From an uncultured Candidatus Saccharibacteria bacterium (GTDB taxonomy: Bacteria; Patescibacteriota; Minisyncoccia; Phycocordibacterales; DATGWK01), in contig CAZBJL010000005.1 in assembly GCA_964492195.1 (NCBI GenBank), forward strand, positions 1 to 58,201: a DNA stretch of 58,201 nt. Direction: 5' to 3'. The position numbers and the translations under genes are program-made. The notes beneath the pieces were generated by a model, which made no database searches, was not told the origin of the DNA, and saw nothing but the letters and a program-made list of their open reading frames with translations. Positions 28,163-33,698 of the stretch are shown here, piece by piece (within the stretch, counting starts at the first letter, position 1; each line of letters begins with the position of its first letter).

Positions 28163-31100
28163 TTATTCTTCGCTTCCCTTACTTGATTTGGTGTCATCGG
28201 CATCTCTGTCTGCTTTTCGGAGTTCGACATCAAGACCCAAACCGCGGAGGTTGTTAAGAAGCACATTAAACGATGCGGGAATATTTAATTCTCGGATCGG
28301 CTCACCTTTCACGATTGCATCGAATGCAGCAGAACGACCGACGATATCGTCTGACTTAATGGTGAGCATTTCACGAAGTGTATGTGCGGCACCGTAGCCC
28401 AAAAGTGCCCAGACTTCCATTTCTCCAAATCGCTGACCTCCGTTTTGTGCCTTTCCACCGAGTGGCTGCTGGGTAATAAGAGAGTATGGACCGATTGAAC
28501 GCATGTGGATTTTATCTTCAACCATGTGATGAAGCTTCATGATGTACATGTAACCGACTGCAATTTTCTGACCAAAGGTTTCACCTGTTCGTCCGTCAAA
28601 AAGTGATACTTTGCCATCTTCGTTGAAGCCAGCTTTTTTGAGTTCGTCTTTGATTTCAACATCGCTTGCACCAGAGAACGGCGGCACAATTGCTTGGTAG
28701 CCAAGCGTATTTGCAGCAAGACCCAAATGCATTTCAAGAATCTGACCCAAGTTCATACGAGATGGAACACCAAGTGGCGTCAAAATAATGTCGATCGGCG
28801 TACCGTCTGCCATGTATGGCATATCTTCTTCTGGAAGAATCTTTGAAATAACACCTTTGTTACCGTGGCGACCTGCGAGTTTGTCTCCAACAGACACGTT
28901 TCGAAGCTGCGCAACTTCAATATGAATACTCTTGATGATTCCTGATTCGAGTTTGTCTCCACGCTCACGTGAGAACACTTGAACGTTAATGATTCGGCCA
29001 CGTTTTCCACCTTCCATTCTCTTTGATGTGTCTTTTACATCGCGAGCTTTTTCACCGAAGAGAGATCGGAGCAAACGTTCTTCTGGAGTAAGCTGACTTT
29101 CACCTTTTGGAGTAATTTTTCCAACGAGAATGTCGCCGGGACGAACTTCTGCACCAATGCGGATAATTCCGTCTTCAGCCAAATTTTTGAGTTTTGTTTC
29201 ACCGACGTTTGGAATGTCGCAGGTTGTAACTTCGGGACCGAGTTTTGTATCGCGAACGTTTACAACAAATTCTTCGATATGAATGCTTGTAAATTTGCTG
29301 TTTTTAACGAGTCGTTCAGAAAGAATAATGGCGTCTTCGTAGTTGGCACCAGACCATGACATGAATGCAACGAGGATGTTTTGCCCAAGAGCCATTTCAC
29401 CGCGATCGCTCGAAGATGTGTCGGCCATGATGTCACCTTTTTTAACCTTGTCACCAACGTTCACGCTTGGGCGCTGATGGAAACAGGTAAAACCGTTTGT
29501 TCGGGAGAAGTTTACAAGTTTGTATTCTTTTTCTTTTCCGCCTTTTGTATTTTTAACGATAATTTTCTTGGCGTCGGATGCGATGATTACACCGTCTTCT
29601 TCAGCTAAAAGGAGGCGACCTGTGTCACGAACTGCTTTACCTTCGATACCTGTCGCAACAAGAGGAGCTTCAGGAACGATACAAGGAGTTGCTTGCTTCT
29701 GCATGTTCGAACCCATGAGCGCTCGGCTCGCATCGTCGTGATTCAAAAATGGAATCATCGAAGTCGCAACAGAGAACGCTTGGTTTGTATCAACGTCGAT
29801 ATAGTCAACCTTGTCTTTTGAAACAACGATAGGATCGCCTGCAAGTCGAACTTCGACATCGTTATCAAGAATCATGTTGTTGTCGCCAACAGAAGTTGCG
29901 GCGTGTGCAATATAGAAAGATTCTTCTTCCATTGCATTAAGGTAGACGATTTCGTCGGTAACTTTACCGTTTTTAACCTTTGCGTACGGAGTTTCGATCA
30001 TGCCGAATTCATTGAGTCGAGCATAGAGACCGAGACGCAAAATAAGACCGATGTTTGGACCTTCGGGAGTGTGGATCGGACAGAGACGACCGTAATGTGA
30101 TGGATGAACGTCTCGAACTTCGAAACCAGCGCGAGCACGATTCAAACCGCCGGGACCGAGGGCTGAAAGTGTTCGTAAATGCTCGATTTCAGAAAGAGCA
30201 TTTTCCTGTTGCATGAACTGTGAGAGTTGATTGGTTGTGAAAAATTCTTTGATTCGAGCTTGGAGCGGTTTTGGACTAATAAACTGCACCGGAAGCGTAA
30301 TGTCGCTTTCAACCGTCGACATTCTGTTCTGAATGTTTCGTTTGATTTGAGCCATACCCATGCGAATTTTCTGCTGGAACATTTCTCCAACAAATCGCAC
30401 ACGGCGTGAACCGAGATGATCGATATCGTCTTCAACAGAGCCTGGAGTCGTATTCAAAACTCCAATGTGATTGATGATAGTTACAACGTCATCAAGAGAA
30501 AGAACCTTTCGTTCCAATTCCCCTTCTGACATTTTCTTTTCAAAACGCTTGTTGAACTGGACACGACCGACACGAGAAAAATCGTATCGTTCTTCACCAA
30601 AAATAGATTTGATAAATTCGCGGGCATTGTCTGCAGTTGCAAGGTCACCGTCGCGAAGTCGTTTGTGAATTTCAATAAAAGCTTCATCGAGAGACTTTGT
30701 GTGGTCTTTTACCAACGTTTTGTCGATGAAAGATTTGGCTGCAGAATCTTTAAACAAATCCTGAATGTTTTTGTCTGTAGCAGCACCGAGGACACGGAGG
30801 AGTGATGTAACGGGGAATTTTCGTTTTCGGTCGATTCGGGCAAACATACTGCCGTCAGAATCAGTTTCGATTTCAATCCACGCACCACGAGCTGGGATTA
30901 TCTTTGCACCAAACAAAATTTTGCCTTTGAGTTCATTGAGAGTAAAAAATACACCGAAAGATCGAGCAAGTTGCGGGACAACAACGCGCTCAACTCCGCT
31001 GATGATGAACGTACCGTGGTCAGTCATGACTGGCATGTCCGCCATGAAGATTTCCTGTTCTTTAGAAGTTCCGAGAGTGAGATTTTTGAGACGAATCTTT

Positions 31101-31378
31101 ACCTTAAGAGACGCTTCGTAAGACATTTTATTGTCTTTTGCGTAGTATTCGTCGAATTTTGGCTCTGCAAGTTCAAAACCAGTGAAATCGAGTTGAAACT
31201 TCTTTCCAGAATAGTCTTTAATAGAAGAAAATTCGCTGAAGACTTCTTTGAGGCCGTCTTTGAGAAGCCATTGGAAAGAATTCACCTGCGATTCGACGAA
31301 ATTTGGCATCTCGGTGAGAGGCTTTTTGAATTTCGCAAAATATTTTTTTACGATTGGCTGTGTCCCAGTTTTATCCAT
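28163..31378 (-). CDS. rpoB: DNA-directed RNA polymerase subunit beta
   Basis: Conserved blocks throughout, e.g. GRHGNKGVISKI and GGQRFGEMEVWAL. Confidence 0.98.
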   Translation of the reverse strand: MDKTGTQPIVKKYFAKFKKPLTEMPNFVESQVNSFQWLLKDGLKEVFSEFSSIKDYSGKKFQLDFTGFELAEPKFDEYYAKDNKMSYEASLKVKIRLKNLTLGTSKEQEIFMADMPVMTDHGTFIISGVERVVVPQLARSFGVFFTLNELKGKILFGAKIIPARGAWIEIETDSDGSMFARIDRKRKFPVTSLLRVLGAATDKNIQDLFKDSAAKSFIDKTLVKDHTKSLDEAFIEIHKRLRDGDLATADNAREFIKSIFGEERYDFSRVGRVQFNKRFEKKMSEGELERKVLSLDDVVTIINHIGVLNTTPGSVEDDIDHLGSRRVRFVGEMFQQKIRMGMAQIKRNIQNRMSTVESDITLPVQFISPKPLQARIKEFFTTNQLSQFMQQENALSEIEHLRTLSALGPGGLNRARAGFEVRDVHPSHYGRLCPIHTPEGPNIGLILRLGLYARLNEFGMIETPYAKVKNGKVTDEIVYLNAMEEESFYIAHAATSVGDNNMILDNDVEVRLAGDPIVVSKDKVDYIDVDTNQAFSVATSMIPFLNHDDASRALMGSNMQKQATPCIVPEAPLVATGIEGKAVRDTGRLLLAEEDGVIIASDAKKIIVKNTKGGKEKEYKLVNFSRTNGFTCFHQRPSVNVGDKVKKGDIMADTSSSDRGEMALGQNILVAFMSWSGANYEDAIILSERLVKNSKFTSIHIEEFVVNVRDTKLGPEVTTCDIPNVGETKLKNLAEDGIIRIGAEVRPGDILVGKITPKGESQLTPEERLLRSLFGEKARDVKDTSKRMEGGKRGRIINVQVFSRERGDKLESGIIKSIHIEVAQLRNVSVGDKLAGRHGNKGVISKILPEEDMPYMADGTPIDIILTPLGVPSRMNLGQILEMHLGLAANTLGYQAIVPPFSGASDVEIKDELKKAGFNEDGKVSLFDGRTGETFGQKIAVGYMYIMKLHHMVEDKIHMRSIGPYSLITQQPLGGKAQNGGQRFGEMEVWALLGYGAAHTLREMLTIKSDDIVGRSAAFDAIVKGEPIRELNIPASFNVLLNNLRGLGLDVELRKADRDADDTKSSKGSEE

Positions 31379-31612
31379 AATGTTTTATTAAAATTTTCTA
31401 AATAATCCTTTCAAACATTCTTCTCACACAGCAGTCTCCTGCATTCATTTACAAAAAAATAGAAAAGACGGAAAAATTCCCCCTGTGGATAAGGGTTCTT
31501 GATCTTCTTTTTAATTTATCTATTTAAATGAGGCACGTTGCCGCTTGTATCTAAAACAGCCTTGTAAACCTTCATTTTCTGCCACGACTCAATCGGAATG
31601 AATTGGACCCCG

Positions 31613-31641
31613 ATTATATACTGGGGTGCGTATTTGGTCAA
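31613..31641 (-). promoter_or_regulatory. rpoBC promoter, giving a ~228-nt leader
   Basis: Minus strand reads TTGACC-17-TATAAT. Confidence 0.6.
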
Positions 31642-31644
31642 GTA

Positions 31645-31734
31645 AATAAAAACCCCGAACACAGCCTTTGTGTAGGGGGTCCATGGACGAGAGCGCCGAA
31701 GCGCAAGATCGAATGAATACAGAGTAAACGTTCT
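31645..31734 (-). ncRNA. Candidate small RNA 2 (self-contained promoter-to-terminator unit)
   Basis: Starts ~7 nt after the TATGAT -10 box. Internal hairpins ACAGAG/CTCTGT and GCGC-UUCG-GCGC. Ends with CCCC..ACACA/UGUGU..GGGG followed by UUUUUAUUU. Confidence 0.45.
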
Positions 31735-31740
31735 CTGTTA

Positions 31741-31768
31741 ATCATACTGCGCCCACACTTATAGTCAA
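31741..31768 (-). promoter_or_regulatory. Promoter of candidate sRNA 2
   Basis: Minus strand reads TTGACT-16-TATGAT. Confidence 0.55.
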
Positions 31769-31771
31769 GCA

Positions 31772-31894
31772 AAGAAAAAGGGCCGCCACCCGAAGGTAGG
31801 CGGCCCAGTTGGAATGGAGGAGTCTGGGACTCCAAACCAACGTCTCAGGGTCCAAAGACCAAAAAGCTTCACCTGAAGCCAACACATGACATCT
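31772..31894 (-). ncRNA. Candidate small RNA 1 (self-contained promoter-to-terminator unit)
   Basis: Starts ~7 nt after the TAATCT -10 box. Hairpin GUUGG..GGAGUC-cca-GACUCC..CCAAC. Terminator GGGCCGCC-uaccuucgggu-GGCGGCCC followed by UUUUUCUUU. Confidence 0.45.
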
Positions 31895-31900
31895 TTCACT

Positions 31901-31928
31901 AGATTACACCGACACAAGACTCTGTCAA
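31901..31928 (-). promoter_or_regulatory. Promoter of candidate sRNA 1
   Basis: Minus strand reads TTGACA-16-TAATCT, directly after the trmD stop. Confidence 0.55.
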
Positions 31929-31932
31929 CAGG

Positions 31933-32574
31933 CTACTTCTTTGCTCGCCACTCCTCTATTTTTTTATGATCACCGGAAAGAAGGACCTTGGGCACTTTGT
32001 ATTTTTTACCTTTATATTCTAAAACTTCTGGTCGAGTGTATACGTCAGAACTCGCCGCTCGACTTTCTTCCAAAGAATCAAAATTTCCGAGCACGCCTTT
32101 CACCTGTCGAGCAACACAATCCATAATAAGCATTGCGGGCAATTCCCCACCTGTGAGCACAAACGGTCCAATCGAAACATCTTCCATTTTAAAAACTTTT
32201 TTTACCCGAGCATCAATACCTTCGTAACGGCCAGAGACAATAATGATGTCAGTGTATTTTTTGGCAGCAGTTTTGGCGTATTCGTTCGTAAATTGCACAC
32301 CTCCAGGAGAAAGGAAAATGATTTTTGGTTTACGTTTCTTGCCTGAAGCCTTCATTGCAGCTTCGATAGCCCTGATCGTTGGGAGTGCCCGCACTACCAT
32401 CCCTGGCCCACCGCCGTATGGTTTATCATCAGCTCGCTTACCTTCTGTTTCAAAGTCTTTAGGATCATAAAATGTGATCTTAATCTTTTTGTCTTCAATG
32501 GCGCGCTTAATGATCGACTCGGAAAGATACGAGTCGAAAGCGCCTGGAAAAAGGGTTATGACGTGAAAATTCAT
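31933..32574 (-). CDS. trmD: tRNA (guanine37-N1)-methyltransferase
   Basis: MNFHVITLFPGAF..., GGGPGMV and GRYEGIDARV motifs. The start was chosen at the conserved N-terminus; the ORF extends to 32616. Confidence 0.93.
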   Translation of the reverse strand: MNFHVITLFPGAFDSYLSESIIKRAIEDKKIKITFYDPKDFETEGKRADDKPYGGGPGMVVRALPTIRAIEAAMKASGKKRKPKIIFLSPGGVQFTNEYAKTAAKKYTDIIIVSGRYEGIDARVKKVFKMEDVSIGPFVLTGGELPAMLIMDCVARQVKGVLGNFDSLEESRAASSDVYTRPEVLEYKGKKYKVPKVLLSGDHKKIEEWRAKK

Positions 32575-32643
32575 CGCCGCACAATACCACAAAATCCAAT
32601 TTACGTAAAACCGCACTCATACGAGTGCGGTTTACTGACAAGA

Positions 32644-32952
32644 CTAGAGTTTCAAATCCGCCATTGCTTCGTCGACGGTTTTGCTTGCCTTTACTACCTT
32701 TTCGCCACCAACTGGCTCATTTATTTTAAGATTTACGCGAGCGTTGTGCTTCATGCCAACAACTCGAAGAAGGGTTCGAATGGCTTTTGCTGTGTTTCCT
32801 TCCCGACCGATCACCTTACCCATATCTGCGGAGTTAACGTCGAGGGTCAAAAGTACGCCCATTTCATCAACAACTCGTGTAATTTTTACATCGTTTGGAT
32901 TATCAACCAACGCTCGGACAACAAATTCTAAAAACTGACTGTCATGTTCCAT
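32644..32952 (-). CDS. KH-domain RNA-binding protein (YlqC/UPF0109 family)
   Basis: GKVIGREGNTAKAIRTLL GXXG KH motif, in the conserved position between rpsP and trmD. Confidence 0.85.
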   Translation of the reverse strand: MEHDSQFLEFVVRALVDNPNDVKITRVVDEMGVLLTLDVNSADMGKVIGREGNTAKAIRTLLRVVGMKHNARVNLKINEPVGGEKVVKASKTVDEAMADLKL

Positions 32953-33046: not shown

Positions 33047-33188
33047 TAATCTTCCAACGAGAGCGCCGTAAATTCTGCTGAATTTCGGCTACTCTCGCCC
33101 ACGGAATGACTTTCGAGAATTCATGACGAAAGTCATTCCTGCCTGCGGAAACTCTCGTTGGAAGATTAGTTTGGAAAAAATACAATAC
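33047..33188 (-). ncRNA. Candidate structured RNA element, copy A (strand assignment tentative)
   Basis: Perfect 17-bp outer helix (33047-33063 pairs with 33152-33168) enclosing a conserved hairpin and a 12-bp hairpin (33104-33115 pairs with 33127-33138). A 21-nt box shared with copy B lies at 33169-33188. Confidence 0.45.
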
Positions 33189-33207
33189 GCACACTAAAAA
33201 AGAGGGA

Positions 33208-33588
33208 TTATGCTTGTACTGGCTCTGGAGCAACTTCTGCAGGAGCAGTCGGAGCTTCTGGAGCAGGTGCTGCGACTTCTGCCGGTGCACCACCTTCAAC
33301 TTCTTTCTTGATTGGACGTTTCTTTGGGAGAACGTTTACTTTTTTACCAGGAATAAGTTTGCGGCTCACAAGGAGGTTGTGGATTGTGCCAGAAAGTTTG
33401 GCACCGTGAGACATCCAGTGTTTTACTCGGTCGAATTTAATTTCGGCCTTTTCAGCTCGGCGAGAATCAAAAGAACCCAACACTTCAAGAGACTTACCGC
33501 TCTTTGGACCGTTCTTTGAATCCGTTAAAACCACGCGGAAAGTCGGCTCGTTCTTTCGGCCAACCCTTTGTAATCGAATCATAAGCAT
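33208..33588 (-). CDS. rpsP: 30S ribosomal protein S16 with an Ala/Pro/Glu-rich C-terminal tail
   Basis: MLMIRLQRVGRKNEPTFRVVLTDS... is a canonical S16 N-terminus. The ORF extends to 33624. Confidence 0.93.
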   Translation of the reverse strand: MLMIRLQRVGRKNEPTFRVVLTDSKNGPKSGKSLEVLGSFDSRRAEKAEIKFDRVKHWMSHGAKLSGTIHNLLVSRKLIPGKKVNVLPKKRPIKKEVEGGAPAEVAAPAPEAPTAPAEVAPEPVQA

Positions 33589-33698
33589 GGGGGCCATTGT
33601 AGCAGGGGTTTTTAAAAGGGTCAATGTCTTTTAAGCCCTATCCTCCGAAGACAAAAGAAAACCGCGCAAAGCGCGGTTGGAGCACTGCCCGACAATCC

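Follow-up and report, generated by a model that had tools for sequence, protein, structure and literature searches.

A private, hairpin-rich insert with two predicted promoter-terminator units lies between trmD and a conserved rpoB leader in a Patescibacteriota genome

Results

The genome studied here (634,573 bp in 12 contigs, 98.85% complete) contains contig C5, and the whole stretch of that contig that we analyzed, 58,201 nucleotides in length, is called the window. On its minus strand the genes run in the order rpsP, khpA (encoding a KhpA-type KH protein), trmD, a 554-nt spacer, rpoB, and rpoC (Table 1). In the direction of transcription, the spacer holds a first predicted promoter and terminator (P1 and T1, unit 1), a second such pair (P2 and T2, unit 2), and a third promoter, P3, followed by a conserved leader (unit 3). 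It is likely that trmD starts at the ATG at 32574, giving a protein of 213 aa, rather than at the GTG at 32616, because a Logan-contig gene call and the BLAST alignments to relatives begin at the former. A look-up of identical KhpA proteins returned a single match, a 1.1-kb Logan contig (run SRR12487045) that ends within trmD, and a look-up of identical TrmD proteins returned none. Classically, rplS comes after trmD; here the L19 gene lies away from trmD, at C2:71735-72019, and dnaA is found at C2:30211-30720. The only gene reported by ARAGORN in the window is that of a tRNA-Thr.

Table 1. Features of the rpsP-rpoB region in the window
Feature	Position	Strand	Basis or score
rpsP	33208-33624	minus	
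KhpA-type KH protein gene	32644-32952	minus	
trmD, last gene of rpsP-khpA-trmD	31933-32574 (from GTG: 31933-32616)	minus	Pfam PF01746, E 2.4e-33
trmD stop	31935-31933	minus	
Private insert with units 1 and 2, non-coding, hairpin-rich, 283 nt (right boundary uncertain by ~10 nt)	31650-31932	minus	clean gap versus L022
P1, candidate promoter, TTGACA-16-TAATCT, 9/12	31901-31928	minus	read from sequence
P1 -35 hexamer, TTGACA	31928-31923	minus	
P1 -10 hexamer, TAATCT	31906-31901	minus	
T1, predicted strong intrinsic terminator, 27-nt hairpin with C(UUCG)G loop, then UUUUUCUU	31772-31806	minus	-22.5 kcal/mol
T1 hairpin, GGGCCGCC...GGCGGCCC	31806-31780	minus	
T1 U-tract	31779-31772	minus	
P2, predicted promoter, TTGACT-16-TATGAT, 10/12	31741-31768	minus	listed by consensus scan
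T2, predicted moderate intrinsic terminator, CCCC..ACACA/UGUGU..GGGG, then UUUUUAUU	31645-31678	minus	-11.1 kcal/mol
T2 hairpin, CCCCUACACA...UGUGUUCGGGG	31678-31653	minus	
T2 U-tract	31652-31645	minus	
P3, predicted rpoB leader promoter, TTGACC-17-TATAAT, 11/12	31613-31641	minus	listed by consensus scan
Conserved rpoB leader	31461-31612	minus	BLAST identity, covariance model
Leader motif CGATTGAGT	31595-31587	minus	
Weak attenuator-like hairpin and T-run of the leader	31495-31479	minus	
DnaA box TTATCCACA, perfect, forming the leader hairpin loop	31492-31484	minus	
rpoB	28163-31378	minus	six Rpb2 Pfam domains

A site was read as a sigma-70-type promoter when its hexamers lay near TTGACA and TATAAT and were 16-18 nt apart. 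The earlier note had described three consecutive near-consensus promoters after trmD. This holds for P2 and P3, which agree with the consensus at 10 and 11 of the 12 positions, but it overstates P1, which agrees at 9, resembles TATAAT at just three of the six positions of its -10 hexamer, and was passed over by the consensus scan. The -35 hexamer of P1 begins 4 nt past the trmD stop codon, and the predicted transcription starts of P1 and P2 fall at ~31894 and ~31734. Across this genome, promoter-like sites are denser in spacers than in coding sequence, 2.6-fold for sites matching at least 9 of 12 positions, 6.8-fold for at least 10, and 17-fold for at least 11, which supports use of this promoter consensus by the organism. 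Real promoters are thus probable at P2 and P3 and uncertain at P1. The hexamer positions of P3 are kept in most of the family sequences examined, and P3 probably drives rpoB, as had been proposed for rpoBC, because relatives share it and the gene has no second good promoter before it. The earlier note saw in this stretch a promoter and nothing more, but P3 is followed by ~130 nt of strongly conserved leader with a terminator-like hairpin at its end.

Predicted T1 and T2 each consist of a G+C-rich hairpin that runs directly into a U-tract, the arrangement by which intrinsic terminators were recognized, and both hairpins appear in the predicted fold. T1 is in the top 14 by strength of the 608 terminator-like sites in the genome, and T2 adjoins the -35 hexamer of P3. 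The RNase P RNA, the tmRNA, and the 6S candidate of this genome carry similar terminators. When the minus strand is read for the two units that had been described after trmD, every element is in its place, and the predicted RNAs are ~120 nt for unit 1 and ~90 nt for unit 2, the latter with the reported GCGC-UUCG-GCGC hairpin in its fold. Non-coding promoter-to-terminator units of 40-250 nt number only 21 in the 634 kb of the genome, and units 1 and 2, side by side, are two of these. Together with the spacer enrichment of promoter-like sites, the rank of T1, and the terminators of the stable RNAs, this speaks against a chance arrangement. We also considered that the units might be tandem copies of the rpoB promoter and leader, a possibility that we rejected, as shuffled sequences reach the same local alignment scores as units 1, 2, and 3 do with one another.

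The segment that carries the two units, called the insert below, has no counterpart among the relatives examined. When the whole spacer was searched as DNA against 60 relatives, matches were confined to its right-hand part, 31449-31645, which is P3 onward. The closest relative, L022, was picked from 80 metagenomic trmD loci and is identical to the window at 98% in the N-terminal protein sequence of rpoB, 87% in rpoB DNA, 76% in trmD DNA, and ~94% in the leader (BLAST). Pairwise alignment with L022 shows one clean gap, such that the distance from the trmD stop to the P3 -35 hexamer is 9 nt there versus ~283 nt here (31932 to ~31650). The segment is likewise missing from four other genomes of the family, G005, G001, G008, and G009, where the trmD stop directly adjoins the conserved P3 and leader part. 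Three congeners have unrelated content at this place: G004 has an ORF of ~135 aa, membrane-like in appearance, in the slot after trmD (L014:997-1500), G006 has a different insert of ~500 nt that resembles an opposite-strand ORF with a hairpin beside the trmD stop (L012:946-1500), and G002 has two peptidase-like genes downstream of trmD (L129). Over 33 metagenomic loci the trmD-rpoB spacer spans 151 to 2294 nt. Judged from these sequences, the trmD/rpoB junction is an operon boundary and a variable slot in the lineage.

Wider searches returned no homologue of the insert: none in the 60 relatives and 80 metagenomic trmD loci, none in phage records and viral contigs, matches of only 17-38 nt in 400 genomes of the order, many of them to terminator or T-run parts, and, in an exact-pattern scan of all GTDB species, 14 chance matches in high-G+C genomes (Caulobacter, Streptomyces, Actinotalea). 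Since the insert is a gap in L022 and absent elsewhere among what was searched, units 1 and 2 are a lineage-private gain. Conserved small-RNA genes would be expected to have homologues in relatives, preferably with compensatory changes; for units 1 and 2 no such homologue was found in the collections searched. The earlier note had named a lack of conservation in relatives as evidence against its reading, and this is what we see, with the 283-nt segment missing from L022, from every other relative examined, and from all collections searched. The units are therefore not small-RNA genes that have been conserved along with the RNA polymerase operon. Units 1 and 2 are at most young, lineage-private orphan small-RNA candidates.

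Could such young units nevertheless be functional? One alternative is that both are trans-acting small RNA genes, recently arisen or acquired in the lineage. Their promoter and terminator architecture is complete, P2 belongs to the 10/12 class of sites with its 6.8-fold enrichment in spacers, the local G+C content is within the range of the known structured RNAs of the genome, and unit 1 folds at z -3.6 relative to shuffles (unit 2, z -2.0). Without their terminators, however, the unit bodies fold like shuffles (z -1.25 for unit 1 and 0.01 for unit 2), so that the fold signal stems mostly from the terminators. Further, no stretch of complementarity between the units and the rest of the genome exceeds 13 nt, a length that chance alone would produce, and neither a homologue in the relatives and collections searched nor a match in Rfam speaks for this alternative, which we consider unlikely.

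Protein-coding genes in the insert would be expected to have a family match, a translation signal, or conservation, and its ORFs have none of these. The segment contains ORFs of 47, 50, 65, and 31 aa that run across the terminators, no Pfam match at E<=1 was found for five ORFs, and no ribosome-binding site was seen for those in the segment, all in keeping with the earlier statement that neither unit contains a credible ORF. A translated search of the insert found no similarity to the cassettes of its neighbors, to this genome, or to any fetched sequence. Decay of an rplS gene was also considered as the origin of the insert and rejected, as L19 is encoded elsewhere (see above) and the ORFs have no Pfam match.

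In composition and folding, the insert stands out from its surroundings. Its G+C content is 49.7% versus a spacer median of 39.8%, and its richest 120-nt window, in the body of unit 1, reaches 55.8%, which puts it at about rank 8 in the 123 spacers, alongside the genes of tRNAs and RNase P RNA. Taken whole (288 nt), the segment has a folding energy of -108.4 kcal/mol (z -4.5). Another alternative is that the segment is a relic without a present role, either the remains of a deleted accessory cassette, whose promoter and terminator stayed behind, or a small non-autonomous insertion element. Several observations are consistent with this. Unrelated accessory genes fill the same slot in G002, G004, and G006, and other private palindromic insertions of this genome, such as that between rpsP and khpA, are missing from L022. 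The opposite strand of the segment is as far from shuffles as the transcribed one (z -4.4), and the ends of the insert are complementary, its first ~34 nt pairing with the T2 region at -24.1 kcal/mol, an energy that 1.3% of shuffled sequences and 0.8% of windows taken from the genome attain, although this pairing was noticed post hoc. Against a relic, the segment is single-copy, with no copies elsewhere in its own genome; no terminal inverted repeat was found by the tool used, the end complementarity being gapped; and no target duplication is visible at the junctions in the L022 alignment. The translated searches also gave no similarity, as described above. We regard a relic as rather doubtful.

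The insert can also be compared with known small palindromic elements. Like the MITE-like Correia/NEMIS, ERIC, and RPE elements, and like a two-copy element of this genome (33047-33188/42600-42780), the insert is lineage-private, hairpin-dense, and non-coding; it occupies a spacer without counterpart in the closest relative, and its ends are partly complementary. Some MITE-like elements carry promoters or terminators. Unlike them, the insert has neither several copies, nor clean terminal inverted repeats, nor a target-site duplication, the features by which such elements are identified, and its similarity to the palindromic elements of this genome amounts to one 12-nt word, shared between unit 2 (31686-31697) and the element between rpsP and khpA (33057-33068). 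The latter element (33051-33219) is missing from L022, which has a 30-nt spacer there (L022:1930-1960); several spacers of this genome have thus acquired hairpin-rich insertions.

A further alternative, that one of the units encodes a small protein or is a very divergent housekeeping RNA, of the SRP or 6S kind, was approached for the RNAs through Rfam. At gathering thresholds, none of 4227 models matched the spacer, and at E<=10 the matches were terminator-shaped noise, the best being sbrA at 19.7 bits versus a threshold of 45, with the terminator shape alone aligned. The units match neither SRP RNA, tmRNA, RNase P RNA, or 6S RNA, whose hallmarks the earlier note had likewise not recognized in them, nor any other Rfam family. 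RNase P RNA (RF00010, C1:60767-61131) and tmRNA (RF00023, C3:39265-39655) are present elsewhere in the genome above threshold. Some room for the alternative is given by SRP RNA, which is undetectable in this genome (RF00169 and RF01854 at E<=10, with no match in 30 relatives either), and by the 6S family, whose sole match (RF00013, C3:33500-33645) is weak, at 19.3 bits, and lies elsewhere.

The SRP54 and SRP_SPB domains of Ffh and FtsY were not found in this genome, and 40 relatives gave only short partial SRP54 matches. The lineage thus lacks the SRP system as a whole, in agreement with its loss in Parcubacteria, which has already been published (PMC4508563). With Ffh and FtsY missing and this precedent, no SRP RNA is expected, and there is no vacancy for the units to fill. 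As SRP RNA the units were rejected because they have no covariance-model match and no Ffh partner and are absent from relatives. As 6S RNA they were rejected because their sizes of ~90 and ~120 nt differ from the ~180 nt with central bubble of that RNA and because the RF00013 match lies elsewhere, where the candidate has its own promoter and terminator. The promoter, TTGAAT-16-TATAGT, and the intrinsic terminator, at -11.3 kcal/mol, flank the match (C3:33464-33680). More generally, absence from the closest relatives is incompatible with a housekeeping role, and a small protein gene is opposed by ORFs that cross the terminators without a family match or visible ribosome-binding site. We consider this alternative, in either form, very improbable.

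The conserved part of the spacer is the rpoB leader. It comprises ~130 nt of strong conservation after P3, with BLAST identities of 78-84% among members of the genus and 71-75% for two further genera of its family, and it ends in a terminator-like hairpin ~100 nt before rpoB. Nine sequences of the family were used to build a covariance model; run on 60 metagenomic loci, it gave 20 matches, of which 17 lie just upstream of rpoB, across the order. The aligned matches have in common GATTGAGTTAYGG, the motif AATAGATAAAT, which the leader of the window also carries, and a terminal hairpin with T-run. The order-wide layout is a promoter, 15-25 nt, GATTGAGTTAYGG, a variable middle, AATAGATAAAT, and hairpin plus T-run, and it is seen at 31461-31641 of the window, at L022:3197-3347, L023:3242-3395, L037:3245-3396, and L054:3209-3355, and at other loci. 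There is little covariation, with 3 of 18 pairs showing it, and the consensus structure has an energy of -2 kcal/mol. A short ORF in the leader (MKVYK...) was considered as a gene and rejected, as it is frame-shifted in three congeners and in G009 ends at codon 4, with the DNA nonetheless conserved. Because covariation is weak and the ORF is not conserved, the constraint may act on sequence, as RNA or DNA sites. With a boxA-like element in mind, we also looked before other operons for the leader motif GATTGAGT and found no further copy.

The DnaA box in the loop of the leader hairpin is one of 11 perfect boxes in the genome. In G009 a DnaA box lies at the same place but inverted, which argues for a DNA site. 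Perfect boxes are present in 10 of 32 distinct trmD-rpoB spacers, and their density there (10 in 20.1 kb) is ~67-fold that in the flanks (1 in 136 kb). The spacers noted for them are those of L022, L023, L054, L056, L058, L061-L064, L069, and L076, and the boxes sit upstream of the -35 hexamer, inside the promoter spacer, or in the leader. These positions and densities suggest DnaA control of rpoBC in this order.

Discussion

The reading that we are somewhat inclined to accept is that units 1 and 2 belong to a private, hairpin-rich insert at a variable junction, in which T1 ends the upstream operon and P2, and perhaps P1, give rise to short orphan RNAs. We judge the signals in the insert to be typical of the organism, because promoter-like sites are enriched in its spacers, its stable RNAs have similar terminators, and T1 ranks among the strongest terminator-like sites of the genome. 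Several consequences would follow. First, T1 would most likely end the rpsP-khpA-trmD transcript, with T2 as backup. Second, relatives have no terminator between trmD and P3, so that in them this transcript would continue into the promoter and leader of rpoB. Third, P2, and less surely P1, would fire and be stopped by T2 and T1, respectively, to produce orphan RNAs of ~90 and ~120 nt. Such RNAs would be mere by-products of transcription or else transcripts of very recent origin, and not conserved regulators of RNA polymerase. Finally, rpoBC would be expressed from the conserved P3 through the conserved leader and attenuator.

Some features fit this reading of the insert less well. The distance from the trmD stop to T1, 127 nt, is rather long for the terminator of an operon, and relatives without any terminator here indicate that insulation is not required. 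For the production of RNAs, the poor -10 hexamer of P1 is a difficulty. Unit 1, G+C-rich and hairpin-dense, would also be compatible with a selected, structured RNA. Nothing in the sequence indicates a selected function of the orphan RNAs, because they have no homologue, the structure of their bodies is at the level of chance, and their complementarity to the genome is at most 13 nt.

The units can be compared with the orphan, lineage-specific small RNAs of bacterial intergenic regions, which are defined by a sigma-70 promoter and an intrinsic terminator. They are alike in their predicted stand-alone promoters, hairpins within ~90-120 nt, and ending in a G+C-rich stem and U-tract, and, as with those RNAs, they lack an ORF and are located between operons. 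They differ in having no homologue in the collections searched, no predicted target, and no structure signal beyond the predicted terminators.

A stronger version of the argument would be that the insert created two new expressed small RNAs beside the RNA polymerase operon of an ultra-small CPR bacterium, newly uncoupling rpoBC from read-through of the ribosomal-protein/trmD operon. We think it improbable that all of this is so. If true, it would be the birth of small-RNA genes by insertion at an operon junction, caught in the act. Variable spacers commonly contain orphan promoter-terminator units, and the significance of the units themselves is small; as they are not conserved, they are candidates and cannot be counted as genes.

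The leader may be of wider interest. Lineage-specific motifs upstream of rpoB are known as Lacto-rpoB and Rhodo-rpoB (PMC5737381); of the known kinds, they come nearest to unit 3, though not to units 1 and 2. Like them, the leader is a lineage-restricted, conserved, non-coding element directly before rpoB; it differs in belonging to another phylum, in being conserved mainly in sequence with little covariation, and in its DnaA box. The scan of all Rfam models at E<=10 matched neither Lacto-rpoB nor Rhodo-rpoB, and the conserved rpoB leader is not in Rfam. As an element common to a whole order of Parcubacteria-type bacteria, with recurring DnaA boxes, it may represent a lineage-specific control of RNA polymerase synthesis. 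No Shine-Dalgarno sequence was seen within normal distance of the rpoB ATG (window 31379-31470). Conservation is poor over the final 100 nt before rpoB, apart from a TTTTAATAAAAC-type stretch that is common to L022 and, loosely, to G004 and G005.
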